From: Bacteroidales bacterium
Lineage (GTDB): Bacteria > Bacteroidota > Bacteroidia > Bacteroidales > UBA932
Direction of reading: 5' to 3'
Assembly: GCA_017618115.1 (NCBI GenBank)
Contig: JAFZUX010000024.1
Location: 31,924 to 95,923, forward strand
DNA: 64,000 bases
Shown: piece by piece, positions 5,519 to 58,066 of the stretch
Numbering within the stretch: the stretch's first letter is position 1
Layout of the letters: the number at the start of each line of letters is the position of its first letter
Notes under the pieces: model-generated
The model's database searches: none
What the model saw: the letters and a program-made list of their open reading frames with translations, nothing else
Told to the model about the DNA's origin: nothing
Program-made: the position numbers and the translations under genes

Positions 5519-7957
5519 ATGAAAAGAGTTTTTGTATTGCTGGCGGCTCTGCTTATCTATGCCGCATCTTTTGCACAGGTAACAACCAAAGTTGAGAGTT
5601 TTAACCACATTGGTCCGTACTTAGTAAACGCTCCTTTGTTTGCAGATTCTTTGAATCTTAAGGGCAAAGCCTTTGAAGATAAGAGTCTTATGGATGCAGT
5701 AAACTTTGTTTATGAGCGCTCTAAGGAGTATTCCGGCCCTATGATTCCATCCTCTTCCGAGGGTAATTCCGTAAATCTCTTTTCATTCTATATCAATAAC
5801 CTAAACTTCCAAAAGGTTAAGATTAAGGTTACTACGCGTGCCGAGCATAAACTCTTTTTAGACGGCAAACCTCTTACGGGGGAGATGAAACTGGAGCCAA
5901 AACAGCATCGTATAGATATAAAGACTCTCTCCAAGAAGGATGCAACAGACTCTATTTCAGTTACTCTGACAAGTAATTCAGAGGTTGCAACAACCCTCTC
6001 TCCAAAGCACTGTTTCTCTATGGACGAGGTGCTCTACGGAAAGAATGTGAATTCATTCCGCGTCTCTCCGGACGGCAATTACGTGATTGTCAGTTACTCA
6101 GAAACAGATAAGACCGGACGCGCTCTGGTTTCCACTCAGCTGAGAGAGGTAAAGAGCGGAAAGGTGATAATGGAAAAGAACGGAATCCGCTGGCTCTCAA
6201 AGGGCAATGAGTTCTGTTACGAGAGCAATCGCGGAGGAAACCGCAAATTATACAAGGCCACTGCAGAGGATATCACTCCTCATCTTATTTGTGACAACAT
6301 TCCTCAGGGCAACATAACTCTTAGCCCGGATGAGAGTTACCTTATTCTGACAAATTCGGATGAGGGGGTAAAGGAGGATCCTAACGTATATCAGATTGTA
6401 GATCCGGATGACCGCCAGCCGGGCTGGAGAAACCGTTCATACGTCTCAAAGTTTGATATTAAAACAGGTGTTAACCAGAGACTTACATTCGGTAATCACA
6501 GTTTCAACGTTATAGATATCTCTAACGATTCTCAAAAACTCCTCATCAGGGTTACCAACCGTCAGGTGGAAAAACGTCCCTCCAGTTCCGTAAACATCTA
6601 TCTGTTAGACTTAAGCAGCAATAAGATAGATACGCTTATTACCAATGAGGGGTTCATTAACAGAGCCTCCTTCTCTCCGGATGACAAACAGCTTCTTATA
6701 ACCGGCTCTCCTGAGGCCTTTGACAAGATAGGGCAGGACATCAATCCCGGACAGGTTGCCAATATCTATGATAAACAGCTCTTTATCTTTGATATAGCAA
6801 CCCAAAAGGTGAAGTGTATAACCAAAGATTTTAACCCTTCGATAGATGACGCAGTATGGTCTTCAAGAGACGGATTCATCTATGCTGCGGTTACCGAGAG
6901 TGAGTATACCAACCTCTACCGCTTCTCTCCAAACGGAAAGAAGGTAGAAAAACTGCCTACTACAGTAGATGTAGTAAGCAACTGGTACCTTCCTAAAGAG
7001 GGTCAGTATCTGAGTTTTACAGGTCTGGGGAGTATGTCTCCTAAGAAGAGTTACATAATGGATCTCAAGAGCCGCAAAACTACAATGTGGGAAGACTGTA
7101 CTAAGGAGCGTTACAAAGATGTGGTAATGAACGAGTGCATTCCTTACTCCTTTACCAACCGCCTTGGAGATAAGATTGAGGGTAGGTTCTATCTTCCTGC
7201 AGGCTTTGATCCTAACAAACAGTATCCTCTGATAGTCAACTACTATGGAGGCTGCAGCCCTACAACCATTTCTTTGGAGTCCAGATATCCTCAACAGTAT
7301 TACGCCTCTCTGGGCTACGTGGTTTACGTAGTTCAGCCGAGCGGTGCGGTAGGGTTCGGACAGAAGTTCTCCGCCCGTCACGTGGAGACCTGGGGTGATT
7401 ATGTTGCAGATGATATCATTGAGGGAGTTAAGAATTTCTGCAAAGACCATCCATACATAAACACCAAGAAAATTGGCTGTATAGGAGCAAGTTACGGCGG
7501 CTTTATGACAATGTACCTGCAGACTGTTACGGATATCTTTGCCTGCGCCGTCAGCCACGCCGGAATAAGCAACATTACAAGTTACTGGGGTGAAGGTTAC
7601 TGGGGCTACTCATACGGCCACGTTGCAAGCGGTGAGAGTTATCCTTGGAACAATCCGGAACTCTACACCAAGCACTCTCCTCTGTTCAATGCGGATAAGA
7701 TTCATACTCCGCTGCTGCTTTTGCACGGTTCAGCAGATACCAATGTGCCTCATATAGAGAGCATTCAGATGTTCACCGCCCTTAAGATTCTGGGACGTGA
7801 GGTTGCCTTTGTGGAGGTGAAAGGGGAGAACCACTGGATTCTGGAGTACAGCAAGAGAATCAAATGGAGCAACACAATTATGGCCTGGTTCCAAAAGTAT
7901 CTGAAAGATGACCCGTCCTGGTGGGATGAACTCTACCCAGACAAACATTTAGACTAA
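5519..7957 (+). CDS. S9 family serine peptidase (prolyl oligopeptidase / dipeptidyl-peptidase-like) with N-terminal beta-propeller
   Basis: ATG at 5519 (MKRVFVLLAALL signal). The track start at 5498 is TTG. The nucleophile elbow is GASYGGFMT and the C-terminal HGSADTNVP ... NHW motifs fit the catalytic Asp/His region. Confidence 0.9.
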   Translation: MKRVFVLLAALLIYAASFAQVTTKVESFNHIGPYLVNAPLFADSLNLKGKAFEDKSLMDAVNFVYERSKEYSGPMIPSSSEGNSVNLFSFYINNLNFQKVKIKVTTRAEHKLFLDGKPLTGEMKLEPKQHRIDIKTLSKKDATDSISVTLTSNSEVATTLSPKHCFSMDEVLYGKNVNSFRVSPDGNYVIVSYSETDKTGRALVSTQLREVKSGKVIMEKNGIRWLSKGNEFCYESNRGGNRKLYKATAEDITPHLICDNIPQGNITLSPDESYLILTNSDEGVKEDPNVYQIVDPDDRQPGWRNRSYVSKFDIKTGVNQRLTFGNHSFNVIDISNDSQKLLIRVTNRQVEKRPSSSVNIYLLDLSSNKIDTLITNEGFINRASFSPDDKQLLITGSPEAFDKIGQDINPGQVANIYDKQLFIFDIATQKVKCITKDFNPSIDDAVWSSRDGFIYAAVTESEYTNLYRFSPNGKKVEKLPTTVDVVSNWYLPKEGQYLSFTGLGSMSPKKSYIMDLKSRKTTMWEDCTKERYKDVVMNECIPYSFTNRLGDKIEGRFYLPAGFDPNKQYPLIVNYYGGCSPTTISLESRYPQQYYASLGYVVYVVQPSGAVGFGQKFSARHVETWGDYVADDIIEGVKNFCKDHPYINTKKIGCIGASYGGFMTMYLQTVTDIFACAVSHAGISNITSYWGEGYWGYSYGHVASGESYPWNNPELYTKHSPLFNADKIHTPLLLLHGSADTNVPHIESIQMFTALKILGREVAFVEVKGENHWILEYSKRIKWSNTIMAWFQKYLKDDPSWWDELYPDKHLD

Positions 7958-8325
7958 TGACTTTTGCACTGAAAAAGATAGATAAATATGCCACAGCCCT
8001 GGTGATTCTCATATTATTAGGGCTGGTGGGGCTTAATACCTACGTTCACTTAAAGAAGTCATATCATGAGGATAACATTGTCCTGCAGGATATAGACCGC
8101 ATTCTCAATAACGAGTATTTTGGCCTTCCTCAAAACTACAGCAGTGATGCAACTCAGAGAGTGGACAAGGTAAAAATAAAGAGCCGCGTTCAAAACGCGG
8201 ACTCTTCAATAACCTATAACTTCAAATACCGCATTTGGCATAAGAAGGGAAAGAATCTTCACGGTACCGGCACAATCACCTTCAAGGGGCTCAGCCCCAG
8301 CGGTTTGTCATATGATTGTCGTTAA
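7957..8325 (+). CDS. Hypothetical membrane-anchored small protein
   Basis: 122 aa ORF with one N-terminal TM helix (ALVILILLGLVGL). Its start overlaps the peptidase stop (TAATG coupling). I recognise no family. Confidence 0.5.
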   Translation: MTFALKKIDKYATALVILILLGLVGLNTYVHLKKSYHEDNIVLQDIDRILNNEYFGLPQNYSSDATQRVDKVKIKSRVQNADSSITYNFKYRIWHKKGKNLHGTGTITFKGLSPSGLSYDCR

Positions 8326-8341
8326 TTGTTAGTGTATAACT

Positions 8342-8554
8342 CTACCTACGCCTAATTCCAAAACGTTTCTTCTCCTTTGTGGAGAGAGTATCTGTGGTTT
8401 CCAGTATTTCAAAGATATTGGCAAGATCATCCTCTGTCAGCTCTCCAAAATAAGTCCCTTTGAGAAGTTTATCCAGTGGGAAAGAAAACAACATTCCACA
8501 GTCAACATAACTGTCATACTTTAAGAAAGAGGGATAATCTTCTTGTTTTATCAA
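8342..8554 (-). CDS. Small hypothetical ORF downstream of the Panacea-domain gene (possible toxin partner or remnant)
   Basis: 70 codons from a TTG, with no ATG or GTG available. It lies in the same frame as the upstream gene, separated only by TAG-TTG-TAA. The segment DSYVDCGMLFSFPLDKLLKGTYFGELTEDDLANIFE loosely resembles the C-terminal part of MazF/PemK-type toxins. Confidence 0.3.
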   Translation of the reverse strand: MIKQEDYPSFLKYDSYVDCGMLFSFPLDKLLKGTYFGELTEDDLANIFEILETTDTLSTKEKKRFGIRRR

Positions 8555-8599
8555 ATACTGAGAGCTAAGATACTCTGCTGAGAACTTGGCTTTTTACAA

Positions 8600-9178
8600 C
8601 TAAGATAACTGATGTTCTATCCACTGACGTTCTTTAATAACCTTAAGCATGGCGGGACTTGCTCCGCCGGCCTCTGCAATATCATAGAGAGGTATGGTTG
8701 TATTCTCTCCCGTTCTTTCAGAGTTCTTGTTTGCTTTTTTCCATGCCTTATCTCCATGAGATAAACTTGACAAATCAAAAGCCTTAATATCACGGAACTT
8801 AGAGATACAAGCATCCAAAACCTTAATGTCTGATGCAGACAATTCTTCAGGATCGTATGACTCTAAGGCTGTTACAACTTGATGCCCCTCTTTTGAACCA
8901 ACTTTCAATGCATTCTTAAAAGACAGCATCTCTTCCTGCTCCAAAGATTCTCCCTTCTCTGCGGCACGTAAAATCTTGTAAGTAAGTTCAGGAACCGGTC
9001 CGTGCTTACGTGCTTTAAAAGTGTCTTCCATCAAAGGAATGCCGTAAGTCACAAGATGGTTCTGTTGTGCAAAATACATCATCTTGAAAAGATGGATATA
9101 GTCTACCCCCTCCGGCATCTGTCCCAAAATATATAGAACAGTTGCCTTAATCTTTAATATTTGATCCAATGTTTTCAT
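8600..9178 (-). CDS. Panacea / SocA-like (DUF4065) antitoxin-domain protein
   Basis: Starts MKTLDQILKIKATVLYILG at 9178. The HLFKMMYFAQQNHLVTYGIPLMEDTFKARKHGPVPELTYKIL segment matches the hallmark KLLYF...A...GPV...Y core of DUF4065. The longer track ORF (to 9385) overlaps the upstream gene and is rejected. Confidence 0.75.
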   Translation of the reverse strand: MKTLDQILKIKATVLYILGQMPEGVDYIHLFKMMYFAQQNHLVTYGIPLMEDTFKARKHGPVPELTYKILRAAEKGESLEQEEMLSFKNALKVGSKEGHQVVTALESYDPEELSASDIKVLDACISKFRDIKAFDLSSLSHGDKAWKKANKNSERTGENTTIPLYDIAEAGGASPAMLKVIKERQWIEHQLS

Positions 9179-9204
9179 CGCACACAAAGATAATGTATTT
9201 ATCA

Positions 9205-9600
9205 TTAAATTTTTCTGTTCTTCTTGTTCTTTTTGAGGACTTTCATAAGCCCCTCTGCGGCAATGTTTCTTCTTAATAGACCTATTGCAATTATTGTAAG
9301 TATTGCGGCAATGATTGGGAAAATCATTGATACGGGGAACTTTACAAGAGAGACTTTCAGCTGGTAAAATACAATGATTATCCATGCCTGAAAGGCTATC
9401 AGTACTATAGTGTTGTAAATACAGAGTCTGAGTTGGATATTCTTATGGTTTATTAGGAAGAGGTTTATGAGGTTTATTCCAAATGTTATAACCAATAGAA
9501 CCAGGAAAGGAGTATACGAGGTATAAATCTTTCCAAAGAACATTATAAACAGCAGTACCGCTGAAATGAGCAAAAGTGTAAGGTAATTGATATTTTTCAT
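9205..9600 (-). CDS. Small four-TM integral membrane protein (DUF4293-like by recollection) with a Lys-rich C-terminus
   Basis: 131 aa with four hydrophobic helices and a KKNKKNRKI tail. It ends 26 nt upstream of the Panacea gene. Confidence 0.6.
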   Translation of the reverse strand: MKNINYLTLLLISAVLLFIMFFGKIYTSYTPFLVLLVITFGINLINLFLINHKNIQLRLCIYNTIVLIAFQAWIIIVFYQLKVSLVKFPVSMIFPIIAAILTIIAIGLLRRNIAAEGLMKVLKKNKKNRKI

Positions 9601-9661
9601 AGCGCTAATTTAACATTTCTTGGACATTTTTTATTAAATTTGAACAAAATCAAAACATTGA

Positions 9662-10726
9662 ATGAGTATGAAAAGTAAAAAGATTGCTGCATCTGAACTG
9701 TTGCTGAACGCAGACGGTTCCATATATCATCTTAATTTGCGTCCGGAAGAACTTGCTGATACTGTGATTCTTGTGGGAGATCCTGGCAGAGTTTCCCTGG
9801 TTGCAAAACACATGACCGCTATTGAGTTTACAAAGCAGTCACGTGAGTTCGTATCCACTACAGGTATGTATAACGGCAAGAGAATCACCGTTTTGTCTAC
9901 CGGTATAGGTACAGACAACATTGATATTGTAATGAACGAGTTGGATGCAATTGCCAACATTGATTTCAATACCAGAGAGATTAAGAAGGAGAAGAGAAGT
10001 CTTACTCTGGTACGTATTGGAACCAGCGGTGCACTGCAGCCTGAGATTCCTCTGGGATCATACGTACTCAGCCACGTATCAATTGGTTGTGACGGTTTGG
10101 TTAACTGGTATGCTAACAGAGATTCCGTTACTGACAAGGAGATGGAGAACGCTCTGGTTAAACACATGAACTGGAATAAAAACCTTCCTCGTCCATATCT
10201 TATTAAGAACTCAGAGAAACTTATCAAACTCTTTGAAAAGAAGACAATAAAGGGTATGACAATCTCCGCTCCGGGTTTCTTTGGTCCTCAGGGAAGAGTG
10301 CTCCGTCTGCAGCTGGCTATGCCTGATATGAATGCAAAATTTGAGAGTTTCCGTTCAAAGGATTACAAGATTACAAACTATGAGATGGAGGGCAGTGCAA
10401 TTGCAGGTCTGGCAAAGGAGATGGGACATGAGGCTATTACCGTATGTTGCATCATAGCAAACCGTTACAGAAAAGAGGCCATTACAGACTACCATCCTTA
10501 CATAGAGAAACTCATACTCCTTGTACTGGATACTCTCACCGGTAAGAAGACTAGAAAGAAAGCAGAACAGAAGGCAGAACGCAGGGCTGCAAAGAAAGCG
10601 GAGAAAAAGGCTGCAAAGAAGGGAGTTAACAAGAAGGTTGGCGGAAAGAAGCCGGTAATAAAGAAGGTGGTTTCCAAAATGGCGGCAAAGAAGGTTGCCG
10701 TTAAGAAGGCTCTGAGACAGAAATAG
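9662..10726 (+). CDS. PNP_UDP-type nucleoside phosphorylase (uridine-phosphorylase-like) fused to a Lys/Ala-rich histone-H1-like tail
   Basis: The N-terminal roughly 290 aa carry LVGDPGRV, RIGTSGAL and NYEMEGSAIAG motifs of the phosphorylase superfamily. The last roughly 60 aa are KKTRKKAEQKAERRAAKKAEKKAAKKGVNKKVGGKKPVIKKVVSKMAAKKVAVKKALRQK. Confidence 0.85.
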   Translation: MSMKSKKIAASELLLNADGSIYHLNLRPEELADTVILVGDPGRVSLVAKHMTAIEFTKQSREFVSTTGMYNGKRITVLSTGIGTDNIDIVMNELDAIANIDFNTREIKKEKRSLTLVRIGTSGALQPEIPLGSYVLSHVSIGCDGLVNWYANRDSVTDKEMENALVKHMNWNKNLPRPYLIKNSEKLIKLFEKKTIKGMTISAPGFFGPQGRVLRLQLAMPDMNAKFESFRSKDYKITNYEMEGSAIAGLAKEMGHEAITVCCIIANRYRKEAITDYHPYIEKLILLVLDTLTGKKTRKKAEQKAERRAAKKAEKKAAKKGVNKKVGGKKPVIKKVVSKMAAKKVAVKKALRQK

Positions 10727-31614: not shown

Positions 31615-34600
31615 ATGTTCAAATTTAAATCCAGATTTTTTGCCTCTGTTGCACTTATTCTATTTTTCTGTGCAGCAGGTTATTCTCAGCAGCAAGTTAG
31701 GTGGCTGAGGACTCCGGCCATTTCACCGGACGGCTCTCAGATTGTTTTCGGTTACATGGGTAACCTCTACAAGGTTAGTTCTGAGGGCGGTCTTGCAATG
31801 CCTATCACATCCGGAGATAACTACAACGGTTATCCGGTATGGAGCAGAGACGGTAAGAAAATTGCCTATGCCAGTGACATCTACGGCAACTTTGACGTAT
31901 TCGTAATGGATGCAAACGGCGGTATTCCGGTTCGTCTGACCTACAATTCCGCAGCAGATTATCCGTTTGACTTTACTCCGGACGGAAAGTATGTGCTCTT
32001 TGGAAGCGGAAGATTTGCTCCATACGAGAGCGTACGTTTCCCATCCACAATGTTCAAGAACCTCTACAAGATTCCTGTAACGGGCGGCAGACCAATTCTG
32101 GTAACTGCAGCCGGTGCAGACGAGGCCAACTTCTCAAAGGACGGAAACAGAATCGTTTTCCAGGATAAGAAGGGTTATGAGGATCCGTGGAGAAAGCACC
32201 ACACCTCATCCGTAACCAGAGATATCTGGATATATGACCTCAAATCAGATAGTTATACAAAAGTTTCAGATTATGAGGGTGAGAACTTAAAACCAGTCTT
32301 CTCTCCGGACGGCAATGCCGTTTACTACATCTCAGAGATGAAACTTAACAAGGCCAACAACGCTCTTAACCTCTTTAAGCAGGATCTTGCATCAGGCAAA
32401 AAGAGCCAGCTTACTGACTTTAAGGACTTTCCTGTAAGAGAGGTGACCATTGCAAACAACGGTACTCTCTCATTTGTTTGGAAGGGAGATATTTACACCG
32501 TTAAAGAGGGTCAGAAGCCAAAGAAACTCAACATCTCAATAGCATCCAACGCAGGCTATCAGAAGATTAAGAGCCTCAACATAAACAATGCTACAGAGAT
32601 GGCTGTAAGCCCTAACGGTAAGGAGATTGCGCTGGTTAACCGCGGAGAAATCTTTGTGGTTGGCGTAAACGATGCCCGCACCAAGAGAATCACCAACACT
32701 CCATACCAGGAGAGAATGATTACCTGGGCTCCGGACGGCAAGGCTCTCTACTATGCTGCCGAGGTTGACGGTAACTGGAACATTCTTAAGGCTACTCTGA
32801 AAGATACTACGGAGAAGTACTTCTATGCCTCCACACTCCTTAATTATGAGAAGGTTGTAGCAGACGGCAAAGACAACTACCAGCCTGATGTATCTCCAGA
32901 CGGCAAAAAACTCGCTTATGTATGCGAGCGTAACACCCTCAAAGTGATGGATCTTAAGACAAAGAAGACCGTTACAGTTCTGCCTAAGGGCCACAACCAT
33001 TCCTATCGCGATGGCGATTGGGGATTTGAGTGGAGCCCGGACAGCAAGTGGCTTCTTGTAGATGATGAGAAGAACCAGATGAGAGGCGGTGCTACCGCTC
33101 TTATCTCTGCGGAGGGCGGAGAGATTCGCTACCCTGTAAACAGTGCTTACGGTGAGAGAAATGCACGTTTTGGCTTTGGCGGTCAGGCAATGACTTACAT
33201 TGGTTCCGGTGCAAACAGCAACGGTCTTAAGGCTGCCTTCTTTGACAAGGAGTCATACGATAAGTTCCTCCTCTCAAAGGGTGATTTTGAACTCCTGGAG
33301 GAGAAAGAGAAGGGTGACAAACCTAAACCGGGTCCGGGCGTTAAACCTGAGGGAAAGCCTGAGGGTAAACCTGATGGCAAACCTGGAGATAAGAAAGATC
33401 TTAAGAAGCCTGAGCCTAAGAAAGAGGTTAAGCCTATCTTTTTTGATGACTTCGATATGATTGAGACCCGCATTGCGGATGTCAGAACAGACGGTCAGCC
33501 AATGGATTACGCCTTCACAAAAGACGGTAAGAAAGTTTACTATCTGCGCAGCGGTGAGAAGGGAATGGAGCTTTGGGTTGCAGATACCCGTAGCCGTGAG
33601 AGCAAGCGTGTAGGACAGGGCAACGTTGGTATGATGAGAAGCATTGAACTCAGCAAGGATGAGAAGAGCATCTTTGGATTGCGCAACGGCGCTCCTGTTA
33701 AGATAGATGTAATGAGCGGTATGCCAAAGCCTGTTGCCATTGCCGGCAAGATGGAGTTGGACGCTGCAGGCGAGCGCGCCTATATGTTTGACCACATGTG
33801 GCTGCAGGTTACCAAAAAGTTCTATGATCCTAAGATTCACGGTATTAACTGGAAGATGTATCACGATGAATATGCAAAGTTCCTCCCTTACATCAACAAC
33901 AACTATGATTTCCAGGTACTTCTGAGTGAGCTTCTGGGAGAGCTTAACGCTTCTCACACAGGCGGCCGCTACTATGCAGCAAGAGCTATGACCGGAGGTG
34001 ATGCAACAGCCAACTTTGGAATGCTTTATGACGAGACCTATACCGGTGACGGTATTAAGGTTACAGCCATCATTCCTAACGGCCCTGCAGACAAACTCTC
34101 CAACAAGATTAAACCGGGAGACGTCATTACTGCCATTAATGGTGAGAGCATTCCTGCAACTGAGAACTATTACAAGTACCTCAACAACCTTGCAGGTGTA
34201 AACACCATTGTATCAGTTAAATCTGCAGACGGCAAGACCTTCACTCAAACCCTCCGTCCTGTTGCCGAGTCTTCACTTGGAAATCTTATGTACCAGTGGT
34301 GGGTTAGAAGAATGGAGAAGATGGTTGAGGAGATGTCCGGCGGAAAACTTGGTTACGTTCACGTTGAAGGAATGAACCAGCAGAGTTACCGCACTATCTA
34401 TAACCGCCTGGGTGGCAGACACGTAAAGAAAGAGGCAGTTATTGTAGATACCCGTTTCAACGGCGGCGGCTGGCTTCATGATGAACTTGTAACTCTCCTG
34501 GGTGCAAAGACCTATATGCGCTATGCTCCTCAGGGTGAGCTGCTTGATGACGGCGAGCCTCTGGGACGCTGGCAGAAGCCAAGTGCTGTTCTTACCTGCG

Positions 34601-35017: not shown

Positions 35018-35038
35018 AATTTCGGGAGTATGATACTA

Positions 35039-35401
35039 CTAACAGACTAGTAAAGACAAGACAAATAGACCTAAATTCACTAGGATGTACATTATAACAA
35101 GATATCCATGAAATGTTTTATGTTTCTCGTTTATAAATAGTTGTTCGTACTTTTGGGCAGTATCCTCTTTTATAATAATTCTGGTAATAATTAGGGATAA
35201 TAATAGAGTAGATATAATAATAGAATTGTTAGTTTTTAAGTCAAATAAGCATTTCAGTATAAGATTGGTTAACGCCAGTAAACCATATCCCCAAAATGCA
35301 GTAATCACAATACCAGAACCAAAACTTCTGCTTCTTGATTCAAACCAATTATGATAGAATTTTGATGAACGATAAAAAATATAGTATAGAATGTGTTTCA
35401 T
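35039..35401 (-). CDS. Hypothetical small membrane protein in an AT-rich islet
   Basis: 120 aa ORF with three predicted TM helices. I recognise no family. Local G+C is about 30%. Confidence 0.5.
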   Translation of the reverse strand: MKHILYYIFYRSSKFYHNWFESRSRSFGSGIVITAFWGYGLLALTNLILKCLFDLKTNNSIIISTLLLSLIITRIIIKEDTAQKYEQLFINEKHKTFHGYLVIMYILVNLGLFVLSLLVC

Positions 35402-55460: not shown

Positions 55461-55534
55461 GGCTCCGTAGCTCAATTGAATAGAGCATCTGACTACGGAT
55501 CAGAAGGTTGCAGGTTTGAGCCCTGCCGGAGTCA
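55461..55534 (+). tRNA. tRNA-Arg (anticodon ACG)
   Basis: GGCTCCG-TA-GCTC...GAGC-A-TCTGA-CTACGGA-TCAGA-AGGTT-GCAGG-TTTGAGC-CCTGC-CGGAGTC-A folds as a cloverleaf. Confidence 0.9.
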
Positions 55535-55576
55535 CAAAAAAAGAGAAGACCATTTGGTCTTCTCTTTTTTTGTGAC
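55531..55576. terminator. Long perfect palindrome / bidirectional terminator after tRNA-Arg
   Basis: GTCACAAAAAAAGAGAAGACC-ATTT-GGTCTTCTCTTTTTTTGTGAC forms a 21-bp perfect stem. Its first 4 nt are the tRNA 3' end. Confidence 0.7.
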
Positions 55577-55623
55577 TTGTTACAATTTAAATTACCTTTA
55601 ATCTCTAAAATAAAAATAGGGGT

Positions 55624-56799
55624 ATGAAAAAGGTTCTTTTTATTGTGCTGATGGTTGTGTCCTGTATGCAGTTGGGTGCGCAGACTCATCGGGATTCCGT
55701 TATTAATCAGGCACGTTATCTTAAAAGTATTTTCCGCACGGATGATGCAATTGAGTTGCTCTCAACTTTGGTGCAGCCTGAGGCTATGGATGAGGGGGTG
55801 CTGGCGGAGTTGGCAGACTGCCATTTCCAAAGTGGTGCCTATGACAATGCCGTAGGAAACTATTTCATACTCTCTTCACTTGCACCAAATAACCTCCTTT
55901 ACAAGATAAGACTGATGCAGGTTTATTACAGGCTTCAGGCTTATCCTCAGAGCATTAAGGCCGCTCAGGATGCTCTGCAACTGGATTCCATTCCGGCAGT
56001 TTTCAGTTATATAGGAGACAGTTTCAAGCAGATGAAGCAGGCGGATTCCGCTCTTTGCTATTACCGTAAGGCTCTGGAACTTAAGCCTATGAATGAGGCG
56101 GTTCTATCCAAGGCCATGGGTATTCTTATAGACAAAAAAGAGTATGACGGCGCTATAGCAATCAGTGAGCCTTTCCTTGAGGAAGATCCTGACAACAGTA
56201 CCATTGCAACTCTAAAAGGGATAGCTCTCTATAGAAACAGTGAATATGAACCTGCTATTAAAGTATTTCAGCATCAGGAAGATATAGGGAATGACTCCTA
56301 CGCTACGCACTTTTTCCTGGGGCAATGCTACTGGCATACACAAACGCTGTATAGGGCTGAGCAGGAGCTTCTTGCCGCCTGGGAAATTGATTCTTCAGAT
56401 GTGAATCTGGCATACTCCATTGCTGCGCTTAAAGCAGATTTTACATATCCGTTTGGAGAAGATGTAAAACCGTGGCTTGACAAAGCTTGGGATATGATTC
56501 AACCTGATTCTTCAATGGTTTCACGTATTCACCAGCAATACGGTTTGGGATATTATAAAAGACAGGATTCCTGGGACAAAGCCATTGAGCATTACAAAGA
56601 GGCCTTACGCTATAATCCAAAGCTGATTTCCGCCATTGTTACAATAGCCTATTGCTATCATATTAAGAAAGATTACAAGCAGGCGGTCAAATGGTATGAA
56701 AGATACCTTAAGGTTGCCAGTCCCGGAACAAAGAGTTACAAATTTGCCCAGGAGAACCTGGAATTCCTTAAAGGAGAGCTCTTTATGGAAGAACAGTAG
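55624..56799 (+). CDS. Tetratricopeptide-repeat protein with signal peptide
   Basis: 391 aa with a signal peptide (VSCMQLGAQ) and multiple TPR units. Confidence 0.8.
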   Translation: MKKVLFIVLMVVSCMQLGAQTHRDSVINQARYLKSIFRTDDAIELLSTLVQPEAMDEGVLAELADCHFQSGAYDNAVGNYFILSSLAPNNLLYKIRLMQVYYRLQAYPQSIKAAQDALQLDSIPAVFSYIGDSFKQMKQADSALCYYRKALELKPMNEAVLSKAMGILIDKKEYDGAIAISEPFLEEDPDNSTIATLKGIALYRNSEYEPAIKVFQHQEDIGNDSYATHFFLGQCYWHTQTLYRAEQELLAAWEIDSSDVNLAYSIAALKADFTYPFGEDVKPWLDKAWDMIQPDSSMVSRIHQQYGLGYYKRQDSWDKAIEHYKEALRYNPKLISAIVTIAYCYHIKKDYKQAVKWYERYLKVASPGTKSYKFAQENLEFLKGELFMEEQ

Positions 56800-56925
56800 G
56801 GGTGCAAAAGCGTAAAATTGTTCATTTGCAACAAATTTATTCTTTTGATACTAAGCATTTTGCACGGCAAAAATCCCGCTCATACTTCATTTAAAATCAC
56901 CTTTTGCAAGTTTTTACGGGGATGC

Positions 56926-57015
56926 TTGACAAAAGCATTTTCCAATTATATTTTTGCATTGCAAAGAAAAGGTCACCAAAAAGATTCTTGACATTGGAAA
57001 AAATCTATATCTTTG
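56926..57015 (+). promoter_or_regulatory. Two tandem promoter-like elements (CTTGACA ... TAnnTTTGCAT)
   Basis: P-a has TTG at 56926-56928 and TATTTTTG at 56949-56956 (20-nt spacer). P-b has TTG at 56988-56990 and TATCTTTG at 57008-57015 (17-nt spacer). Both share the CTTGACA and TTTGCAT contexts. Confidence 0.45.
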
Positions 57016-57024
57016 CATCAAATT

Positions 57025-57133
57025 GTCGGTATTATAGTAAAGGGTGGCTATCAAAAATGGCCACCCTTAGTTTTTTAACCGTGGGGAGGTAGCAAAGCCA
57101 AGGAGGGCTTACTCTTCAAACTATAATATCGAC
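57025..57133 (+). ncRNA. Candidate structured 5' leader or small RNA (three-way junction with an embedded terminator-like hairpin)
   Basis: P1 pairs 57025-57038 with 57120-57133 (14 bp, one G-U). H1 pairs 57040-57048 with 57060-57068 (9 bp) and is followed by T6 at 57071-57076. H2 pairs 57095-57099 with 57106-57110 with an AAGGAG loop and is extendable with 57083-57088 / 57112-57117. Confidence 0.4.
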
Positions 57134-57135
57134 AT

Positions 57136-57276
57136 ATGACAAAAAATAGAGTTATGCCTAGCATTGTCTGTGTTACTATCAGAGTTGATAGATACAGACT
57201 CACCAGGGTAAGGGCGCACAAGCGCGTTTACAATGGGAAAGTTGTAAAGGTTAAGACCCACTATCGTAGGTACTAA
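57136..57276 (+). CDS. Candidate 46-codon highly basic small protein
   Basis: It translates as MTKNRVMPSIVCVTIRVDRYRLTRVRAHKRVYNGKVVKVKTHYRRY, with 14 Lys/Arg, 2 His and 1 acidic residue. There is an internal quasi-repeat (RVRAHKRVY / KVKTHYRRY). Promoters lie upstream and a hairpin downstream. It is too short for the ORF track. Confidence 0.35.
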   Translation: MTKNRVMPSIVCVTIRVDRYRLTRVRAHKRVYNGKVVKVKTHYRRY

Positions 57277-57312
57277 CCGAATGTGTTAGTCTTCTCGATC
57301 CCCTCGGTAATG

Positions 57313-57351
57313 GGAGCCGGGTAATTCAATGAGAGTTGATTACTCGGCTCC
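57313..57351. terminator. 13-bp hairpin between the small ORF and the convergent TfoX-like gene
   Basis: GGAGCCGGGTAAT-(13 nt)-ATTACTCGGCTCC (one G-U), followed on the + strand by the T-rich TTCATTATTATTT. Confidence 0.55.
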
Positions 57352-57358
57352 TTCATTA

Positions 57359-57676
57359 TTATTTGAACTTGATCTTGGGCGGAGGCAGGGCAGGAAGTGT
57401 TGCCTTGATTAACTCAACCAGATAGTCACTGTCGTCTACATCACTGATATAGAAGTAGTTTTTGGCACCAGGATATGGCGGGCGGAGGTCTACCTCTTTG
57501 AGAACGGCTCTGCCTGGTTCCGTTACTTTAACGTAGAGGTTGCTGTCACAGATAAGGCCAAAGATGATACTGTCACAGTAAATGCAATAGTCTCCCATCA
57601 TCTTTCTGACTGCAATATCTCCGGCGCGGGAGCACTGATCTACAATGTATTGGACAAAGTCTGCGTTACTGGCCAT
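57359..57676 (-). CDS. TfoX N-terminal-domain protein
   Basis: 105 aa. FVQYIVDQCS...VRKMMGDYCIYCDSIIFGLICDSNLYVK is the typical TfoX_N pattern. Confidence 0.75.
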   Translation of the reverse strand: MASNADFVQYIVDQCSRAGDIAVRKMMGDYCIYCDSIIFGLICDSNLYVKVTEPGRAVLKEVDLRPPYPGAKNYFYISDVDDSDYLVELIKATLPALPPPKIKFK

Positions 57677-57679
57677 TGG

Positions 57680-58066
57680 TTACTGTAAGAATTTCATAAA
57701 GGAGCCGGGGAGGAGAATGTTCTCTACCTCAAGGGCTTTCTTAAAGAGCGGAGCAATCTCCTCATCTGTGAAACCTGCAATTCCGCAGCCTATACGGGTT
57801 ACAAGGAAGGTAAGATCCTTGTGTTGCTTTGCAAACTTAATGAACTCATCTACATAGGGTTTGATGGTCTCCACGCCGCCCTGCATAGTTGGAATGGCGT
57901 AGGTCTGACCGTGGAGTCCTACACCTTCACCCCATACAGCACCAAAGTTCTCGTAGGCGTATCTGGCAGCACCGCCTCCGTGCTTTCCTCCAAGGTTACT
58001 TCCAAACACAAATATCTCATTGGGTTTCAACTCCTTGATGGAGTTGGGTGAGCATTTTTTACTCAT
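57680..58066 (-). CDS. Conserved hypothetical protein. By recollection it resembles the phage-associated A1S_2505-type / SLOG-like family.
   Basis: 128 aa with the IFVFGSNLGGKHGGGAA...GQTYAIPT...LVTRIGCGIAGF motif pattern. The family assignment is from memory only. Confidence 0.6.
   Translation of the reverse strand: MSKKCSPNSIKELKPNEIFVFGSNLGGKHGGGAARYAYENFGAVWGEGVGLHGQTYAIPTMQGGVETIKPYVDEFIKFAKQHKDLTFLVTRIGCGIAGFTDEEIAPLFKKALEVENILLPGSFMKFLQ

Follow-up and report, generated by a model that had tools for sequence, protein, structure and literature searches.

The hok/Sok family, known from plasmid R1 and from chromosomal hok loci, encodes proteins of fewer than 60 amino acids on highly structured, closed messenger RNAs (mRNAs) whose 5′ end blocks translation by long-range pairing. 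A related arrangement is considered here for a short cassette of a Bacteroidales bacterium of the UBA932 lineage (assembly GCA_017618115.1, contig JAFZUX010000024.1, forward-strand positions 31,924 to 95,923; this 64,000-nucleotide (nt) stretch is called the window and supplies the coordinates below). The cassette fills a 560-nt gap that is bounded on one side by a TPR gene (55624-56799, + strand) and on the other by a TfoX_N gene convergent with it (57359-57676, − strand) and, as read from its sequence, is self-contained: it has its own Bacteroidota-type promoter or promoters, a structured leader, an open reading frame (ORF) for a very basic protein of 46 amino acids (aa), and a terminator. 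The pairings of its RNA are referred to as P1, which joins the 5′ end of the transcript to the start region; H1, a terminator-like hairpin; LR, a long-range helix between leader and 3′ untranslated region (3′UTR); and P2, an alternative to P1 that engages the first codons. With a probability of roughly 0.55, the message for this small basic protein is doubly locked and type I toxin-like, and the cassette is of mobile origin.

The cassette has in common with hok a 5′–3′ fold-back, mutually exclusive helices, multiple copies and a link to mobile elements. It differs in that no conserved antisense promoter of the Sok kind accompanies it and no overlapping mok-type frame is seen; moreover its peptide is cationic and predicted to be of beta structure rather than a membrane helix, its leader includes the terminator-like H1, and its phylum is Bacteroidota. 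In the type III system ToxIN, a single promoter serves an RNA segment and a terminator that limits read-through into the protein gene. Promoter, RNA segment, terminator-like hairpin and downstream protein gene follow one another in the same order in the cassette, whereas the tandem repeat array is missing (no tandem repeats were found in the element) and a product of 46 aa stands against the ToxN endoribonuclease of about 170 aa. The combination of a repeat antitoxin RNA with an endoribonuclease that distinguishes type III systems is absent, and the 46-aa product has no match in Pfam, NCBIfam or PADLOC.

Three further systems regulate a message through its own folding. The full-length aapA1 message of the aapA1/IsoA1 locus of Helicobacter pylori is folded so that translation is impeded until the RNA is rearranged, and members of this family were found through their conserved mRNA structure (PMC5416894). 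A translation-impeding fold of the full-length RNA is proposed by analogy for the cassette; aapA1, however, owes its activation to 3′ processing and its silencing to an opposite-strand RNA, whereas the cassette would rely on a lock between its 5′ end and the start codon, with no conserved antisense promoter. For dinQ/agrB of Escherichia coli, the primary +1 transcript is reported to be inert, with exclusive structures that gate the start and activation by removal of the 5′ portion (PMC5066626). This matches the logic of P1 versus P2, although the dinQ product is a hydrophobic inner-membrane peptide and the partner of dinQ a divergent small RNA (sRNA). In the icaR mRNA of Staphylococcus aureus, pairing between leader and 3′UTR is reported to control translation, with the 3′UTR occluding the Shine-Dalgarno sequence (PMC3868564). 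LR likewise pairs a leader with the 3′UTR of the same mRNA, but in the cassette it is the leader's own 5′ end that covers the start codon, and LR ties down another segment of the leader.

Leader pairings and the small protein

P1 is made of a 5′ arm at 57024-57038 (+ strand), which is the predicted 5′ end of the transcript and complementary to the start region, and a 3′ arm at 57120-57134 (+ strand), which ends 1 nt 5′ of the ATG at 57136. One of its 15 pairs is a G·U wobble (G57029 with T57129), so the helix is not a perfect inverted repeat in the DNA. It had been recognized in a first-pass annotation of this stretch, displaced by one base, as a 14-pair helix separated from the ATG by 2 nt. 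The folding energy of the leader is −50.4 kcal/mol, compared with −24.5 ± 3.4 for shuffled sequences (z = −7.7). P1 spans the distance from transcript 5′ end to start codon in nearly every member of the family of homologous loci: its onset lies 4–7 nt past the G of the TAnnTTTG box in most loci, at the expected transcription start, and its 3′-most paired base falls within or just past the start codon (median +3). Family helices comprise 17–28 pairs, against 15 in the window, at about −20 to −25 kcal/mol. Their sequence differs completely between copies, yet every leader taken alone folds to P1 plus H1. In an alignment-free comparison of arm duplex energies over 32 loci, cognate arms averaged −21.3 kcal/mol and non-cognate arms −10.3 ± 3.3 kcal/mol, the cognate arm being the best of 32 partners in 27 loci. 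Family-wide covariation indicates that P1 occludes the start codon, as had been proposed from the window copy, and would probably block translation.

The conservation of P1 as a helix coexists with an extreme variability of its letters. The window copy and its closest relative, locus L029, are 92–96% identical in promoters, codons 11–38, LR and 3′UTR, against 47% and 56% in the two P1 arms, and pairing is kept in both loci. Over 51 locus pairs with ORF cores 88–98% identical, arm identity averages 62–64%, to be set against a shuffled baseline of 54 ± 7%; in the seven pairs examined, the ORF cores differ at no more than 1–5 third positions. Paralogues within one genome are orthogonal, with P1 energies of −16 to −25 kcal/mol for cognate arms versus −6 to −16 kcal/mol across copies. 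By these comparisons P1 turns over faster than neutral change would allow, a sign that its identity may be important as an address that confers specificity. Such an address would be expected if a short, H1-terminated leader also acted in trans.

H1 (57040-57051 with 57057-57068, + strand) has 12 bp and the loop CAAAA and is followed by AG and by T6 at 57071-57076, in the manner of an intrinsic terminator. The hairpin with its T-run had been described as terminator-like, a view that stands, and as 9 bp long, which falls short. Nearly all family members carry a hairpin of 10–19 bp at this place, preceded by an A-run and followed by a T-run. Nine of 14 H1 pairs covary and G·U pairs make up 15% of the total, a share that points to selection acting on the plus-strand RNA. 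No conserved antiterminator helix competing for the H1 arms appears in folds or alignments. Another hairpin, H2, does occur in the minimum-energy fold of the window copy, where it had been noticed, but the family does not keep it. Because the H2 arms are the 5′ strands of LR and P2, both of which have better-supported distant partners, the three-way junction drawn from P1, H1 and H2 is not a conserved feature.

LR connects 57078-57087 in the leader (ACCGTGGGGA, + strand) with 57299-57308 in the 3′UTR (TCCCCTCGGT, + strand), with one U·U mismatch in the window copy. RNAalifold applied to 17 full-length sequences returns a 12-bp LR between ACCGAGGGG(AGG) of the leader and (CC)CCCCTCGGT of the 3′UTR; the ACCGAGGGG/CCCCTCGGT helix is paired in 97.5% of alignment cells and includes compensated variants. 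Leader ACTCGAGGGGA faces 3′UTR TCCCCTCGAGT in L047, AAAGAGGGGA faces TCCCCTCTTT in L052, and AGCCGAGGGGAA faces TTCCCCTCGGCT in L048; the corresponding strands are AGCCGCAGG and CCTGCGGCT in L068, L069 and L077, AGATGGACGG and CCGTCCATCT in L064, L075 and L076, and AGCCGAAGGGG and CCCTTTCGGCT in L135. Since the LR core is conserved, cognate and non-cognate strand energies do not discriminate, and support for LR comes from these variants and from the full-length consensus statistics. A run of T4–7 directly follows the LR 3′ strand in 29 of 39 loci; the window has a separate hairpin instead.

P2 pairs 57111-57115 (ACTCT, + strand) with 57148-57152 (AGAGT, + strand) inside codons 5–6. The canonical form, TTGTTCT/AGAACAA, lies at codons 4–6 and holds the start codon in its loop; compensatory changes are present in L029 (TTGCTCT/AGAGCAA) and in the window, where ACTCT/AGAGT carries two relative to the canonical helix. 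The family has additional helices inside the ORF and a 3′UTR hairpin, H3. A full-length consensus composed of H1, LR, P2, H3 and the helices inside the ORF is paired in 94.7% of cells, as opposed to 45–52% with slid partners, and comprises 24 doubly changed pairs versus 4–12; none of 500 shuffles was as good.

A further contact concerns the stop codon. At least 6 nt of the H1 loop are perfectly complementary to the stop-codon site, at a fixed offset, in 26 of 38 loci, a level reached by only 1.9% of shuffled controls. The two sites change together: CCCTAA/TTAGGG accompanies the stop TAG, CCCTTAA/TTAAGGG the stop TAA, and CCATCAA/TTGATGG the stop TGA, and CCTCTAA/TTAGAGG and CCCTTT/AAAGGG are also found. 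This concerted change indicates pairing between H1 loop and stop codon in the canonical members. Sub-families without this pairing, that of the window included, mostly have a local terminator hairpin after LR.

The small ORF (57136-57276, + strand) encodes the 46-aa peptide MTKNRVMPSIVCVTIRVDRYRLTRVRAHKRVYNGKVVKVKTHYRRY, exactly as quoted in the first-pass annotation. Fourteen of the 46 residues are Arg or Lys and one is acidic, which gives a net charge of about +13. Entropies at codon positions 1, 2 and 3 are 0.69, 0.58 and 1.07, the median ratio of nonsynonymous to synonymous substitution rates (dN/dS) is 0.31 (34 distinct ORFs), and ORF length and stop position are conserved across the family. 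By these measures the ORF is a real gene under purifying selection, as had been supposed. The family consensus reads MKKRT..VI.SIRVEIVRLVRVKAYKRIRFGKVERVRSHYRRY, with the stop codon immediately after. AlphaFold2, supplied with the family alignment, predicts a three-strand beta-meander (predicted local distance difference test, pLDDT, 71), and the duplicated [RK]V[RK]xHxRxY unit pointed out earlier corresponds to strands 2 and 3 of the predicted sheet. In a profile search of the PDB the basic C-terminus of uS13 was matched only marginally (E 0.035) and Foldseek with the predicted structure gave no match below E = 0.6; both outcomes are treated as uninformative. One PHROG family of unknown function matches the peptide.

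Family, mobile context and decay

Searches with the peptide uncovered 53 homologous proteins in a large protein set, most of them exactly 45 aa long, and 51 loci in gut and rumen Bacteroidales genomes, several of which have 2–4 copies. Carriers include Candidatus Cryptobacteroides, Candidatus Coprenecus, "Bacteroides sp. CAG:545" and "Alistipes sp. CAG:435", and 123 protein clusters at 50% identity were collected, all small. A six-frame peptide match occurs in another genus of the host's taxonomic family; in that family a peptide profile finds the cassette in 18 of 151 genomes and 6 of 37 genera, with 1–3 copies each, and in one of the nine other species of the window's own genus. At the DNA level, searches of the 1.85-Mb genome detect one copy, and those of 24 congeners detect none. 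Rfam gives no match for the cassette in the window at gathering or relaxed thresholds, transfer RNAs (tRNAs) being the only hits in the window and 12 canonical loci. This evidence places the window copy, as a diverged member, in a family of gut and rumen Bacteroidales that is undescribed and has no Rfam, Pfam or NCBIfam entry. Both the peptide homologues and the compensatory base changes that the earlier annotation had named as checks were found, the latter in P1, H1, LR and P2.

The genomic surroundings of the family point towards mobile DNA. A tRNA lies within 1.5 kb in 17 of 51 loci, and many copies are located among serine recombinases, integrase, transposase, excisionase-like and anti-repressor genes. 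Searches with tblastn of INPHARED phages and PLSDB plasmids gave no match, and IMG/VR gave one, at a contig end. The cassette often converges on a gene for a protein of about 310 aa that weakly matches the rolling-circle Rep G2P; an obligatory partnership was rejected, as the gene is within 1.5 kb in only 3 of 51 genome loci. The Rep-like gene of mobile-element copies (L084:4202-5128, L081:4211-5149, L086:4202-5164 (minus)) weakly matches Phage_CRI/G2P initiators; one variant is fused to an ORF6N domain, and the stop codon of the gene lies inside the terminal T-run of the element. One of the mobile-element copies has a TROVE/Ro60-like gene (L084:6987-8138) at a distance of about 3 kb; the loci that were scanned yielded no Y-RNA family.

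One chromosomal variant, recorded in 144 sample blocks, adjoins a tRNA-Leu island hot spot. Comparison of L122 with L123–L126 (about 7200-10400) reveals a 2.8-kb island whose insertion point is the 3′ end of a tRNA-Leu(TAG) on the minus strand, located about 200 nt downstream of the element; the island bears the att-like repeat TGTGCGGGT, and L122 shows the site empty. The element itself was rejected as an integration target, the L122–L126 island being at the neighbouring tRNA-Leu and not in the element.

Decay is frequent. Both promoters, P1, H1, LR (with its one mismatch), P2 and the ORF are intact in the window copy, and its closest relatives are already broken. A sister species, G567 (TPR gene 86.5% identical), retains at the same place only the parts corresponding to 57202-57248 and 57284-57359, and a deletion of about 35–40 nt that removes the conserved C-terminus is common to G567, L029, L071 and L072. 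Among the cases seen, a broken ORF with an intact leader is commoner than the reverse (L039), an anecdotal tally that fits toxin-first decay. A covariance model of the leader finds further relics elsewhere; its extra matches without the peptide were rejected as true members, being relics or plain terminators. An upstream ORF starting in the H1 loop was likewise discarded, as it is not conserved across the family. Taken together, these data describe a cassette of patchy distribution, with 1–4 copies per genome, that resides in mobile elements or tRNA-side islands and tends to decay.

Two derivatives deserve separate mention. The window's own genome has a second, ORF-less copy on contig C21 (~35020-35215, minus strand; L127:3520-3715, minus), flanked by aroK and by a gene whose product was judged by eye to be Bro-N/Fic-like. 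The copy consists of a TATCTTTG box, some 30 nt of 5′ tail, an H1 of 17 bp with T5, AGCCGAGGGGAGGTAG, a GGCCGAAAGGCT hairpin and CTCGATCCCCTCGGT; both LR strands are retained and the P1 3′ arm and the ORF are missing. Its minimum free energy is −64.4 (z = −4.7). In L136 (G548:C10:82950-83720, minus strand), the 5′ half of the leader, with promoter, P1 5′ arm, H1 and LR 5′ strand, is fused immediately upstream of an unrelated, lipoprotein-like ORF (MKSLRFALGLTLSLIVAACAQ...) and may be a captured promoter or terminator module.

A proposed locked message and its rivals

As a locked message, the cassette would operate through an ordered series of folds. Most transcripts would stop at H1 and release a leader RNA of roughly 55 nt. 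In the others P1 would form first during transcription and block the start codon, and LR would then tie the ends of the read-through mRNA. Such an mRNA would thus emerge with P1 closing its start and LR holding its ends together, and its translation would need refolding or removal of the 5′ arm, a logic like that described for hok, aapA1 and dinQ; P2, exclusive of P1, would leave the AUG in a loop. The product would be harmful or dose-sensitive, either nucleic-acid-binding or membrane-active, and may serve a selfish or defensive role for mobile elements. The cassette agrees with type I systems in the toxin-like size of its ORF (46 aa, below about 60 aa), in a predicted transcript of its own, with conserved promoter and terminator, and in an mRNA whose covarying P1, LR and P2 would be expected to block initiation.

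Several observations weigh against this interpretation. A search for TAnnTTTG in 39 loci found no conserved minus-strand box inside or beside the element, and no separate gene for an antisense or divergent sRNA was identified in this way. The 46-aa peptide has no hydrophobic span of transmembrane length, whereas known type I toxins have a hydrophobic helix; by its composition and its predicted beta-meander, the strongly cationic product would be unlike them and not a membrane-inserting peptide. P1 and LR cross topologically, and nested folding cannot tell whether they coexist. For 26 of 32 loci the full-length minimum-energy fold adopts LR and an extended P2, whose large loop contains the AUG and would expose it; that of the window retains P1. 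Finally, the window copy itself has no loop-to-stop pairing, has a U·U mismatch in LR, and belongs to a decaying lineage. The lack of an antisense gene and of a hydrophobic peptide sets the cassette outside type I membership proper.

A more specific and tentative version would make of the cassette a single-transcript, toxin–antitoxin-like module new for Bacteroidota. The antidote would be the message's own leader, which would pair successively with the start codon through P1, the stop codon through the H1 loop and the 3′ end through LR. LR would double, in canonical members, as a split terminator stem beside the U-run, termination at H1 would free the same anti-start and anti-stop RNA, and the hypervariable P1 would be an address against cross-talk between paralogues.

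Among the rival explanations the one that survives best, although it is unlikely, is an autoregulated RNA-binding protein. The peptide would bind its own leader, in the H1 loop or the ACCGAGGGGAGGUAC region, and feed back on termination or translation as a benign accessory protein, in the manner of ribosomal-protein leaders. A net charge of about +13, the conserved sequence blocks of the leader and the weak resemblance to the basic C-terminus of uS13 are in keeping with this. Each conserved block is, however, accounted for by RNA–RNA pairing, the patchy, multi-copy, mobile-linked and often decayed distribution is unlike that of housekeeping regulators, and the uS13 match is marginal and concerns a helical part, whereas the predicted fold is beta.

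Next in standing, and rather doubtful, is an antitoxin acting in trans, which would extend the locked-message reading. Here the H1-terminated RNA (P1 5′ arm plus H1) would silence processed or open copies of its own mRNA, giving a single-promoter, same-strand pair. The strong terminator-like H1 directly after the anti-start-codon seed and the complementarity of the H1 loop to the stop codon in canonical members suit this proposal, and P1 arms that have random-level identity between near-identical ORF cores, with orthogonal paralogues, are what would be expected if discrimination in trans matters. The cis arm, on the other hand, is always present in the full-length mRNA, so action in trans would require 5′ processing, and the window mRNA finds no complement in the ORF-less copy of its own genome, whose pairing with it in trans is no better than that of shuffles. 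A stand-alone sRNA, which the first-pass annotation offered as an alternative, fits at best as a by-product of this kind, in the form of the short RNA from termination at H1.

A structured non-coding RNA or ribonucleoprotein, with an incidental ORF, is very improbable. The covarying structure does extend over the whole of roughly 340 nt, ORF included, tRNAs adjoin the element and ORF-less derivatives exist. Third codon positions nonetheless vary about twice as much as first and second ones, the dN/dS of about 0.31 and the conserved ORF length and stop position speak for coding, and the ORF-less copies look like assorted relics, not a conserved class.

Still less credit is due to a metabolite riboswitch or an RNA thermometer controlling the ORF, both of which had been suggested at first. 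A start-closing helix with an internal terminator-like hairpin resembles an expression platform, but neither Rfam threshold gives a match, no antiterminator alternative to H1 is seen in folds or alignments, and no conserved unpaired core is left once pairings are assigned. The conserved leader bases pair with the 3′UTR, codons 4–6 and the stop codon, which explains their conservation in place of a ligand pocket; as for a thermometer, P1, with its 17–28 pairs and about −21 kcal/mol, is far too stable to melt.

Largely refuted is a DNA-level element, whether an invertible terminator switch of the cwpV type with the P1 arms as inverted repeats or the miniature inverted-repeat transposable element (MITE) envisaged earlier: inverted repeats do flank a terminator and serine recombinases are within a few kb in some mobile-element copies, but the arms, with their G·U pairs and internal loops, differ in every locus and so provide no common recombinase site, the segment has the same orientation in 38 of 38 loci, the P1 3′ arm always abuts the start codon, the genome holds one full copy and one ORF-less relic, and no recombinase is near the window copy.

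Genomic setting and significance

The transcription signals identified by inspection bear out the independent unit and the two promoters 59 nt apart that had been proposed for the gap. The upstream promoter (56926..56956, + strand) combines TTGACA at 56926-56931 with the −7 box TATTTTTG at 56949-56956, and the proximal one (56988..57015, + strand) TTGACA at 56988-56993 with the −7 box TATCTTTG at 57008-57015; both are of the TTGACA/TAnnTTTG type and the spacing of 59 nt is that of the −7 boxes. Transcription is expected to start near 57020-57025. An exact TAnnTTTG on the + strand lies 134–163 nt 5′ of the ATG in 36 of 39 family loci, the distance in the window being 120 nt. A second upstream box occurs in six loci (window, L030, L043, L067, L068 and L069), and the upstream promoter is 93% conserved in L029. 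The hairpin 3′ of the ORF, also noted previously, is present at 57313-57351 (+ strand; GGAGCCGGGTAAT...ATTACTCGGCTCC) with a T-rich tail to 57364; it sits between the ORF and the convergent TfoX_N gene (stop 57359-57361), is 96% identical in L029 and is kept in the G567 relic. All features of the first-pass annotation are present, several of them at positions or lengths that needed small corrections.

Directly downstream of the element, the minus strand at 57359-58066 has genes for a TfoX_N-only protein of 105 aa and for a phage non-structural protein of the A1S_2505 family (128 aa; NCBIfam E 7e-45). These genes, together with a tRNA-Arg 1.6 kb upstream, suggest that the stretch around the element is an old island. 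The strongest inverted repeat of the window, a perfect palindrome with 23-bp arms and a 2-nt gap (55530-55577), overlaps the 3′ end of that tRNA-Arg(ACG) (55461-55535).

Small toxin genes of a type I-like, RNA-locked kind have been studied well in Proteobacteria and Firmicutes but, to our knowledge, have hardly been described in Bacteroidota. In this phylum no Shine-Dalgarno sequence is used to begin translation, which requires the start region to be open. The family presented here offers a compact and richly covarying natural example of start-codon occlusion in Bacteroidota, by way of an unusual leader predicted to contact its own message at the start codon, at the stop codon and at the 3′ end. 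Its fast-changing "address" helix suggests specificity between copies, and an unnamed, widespread protein of 43–46 aa of gut and rumen Bacteroidales is put on the map and tied to mobile elements.

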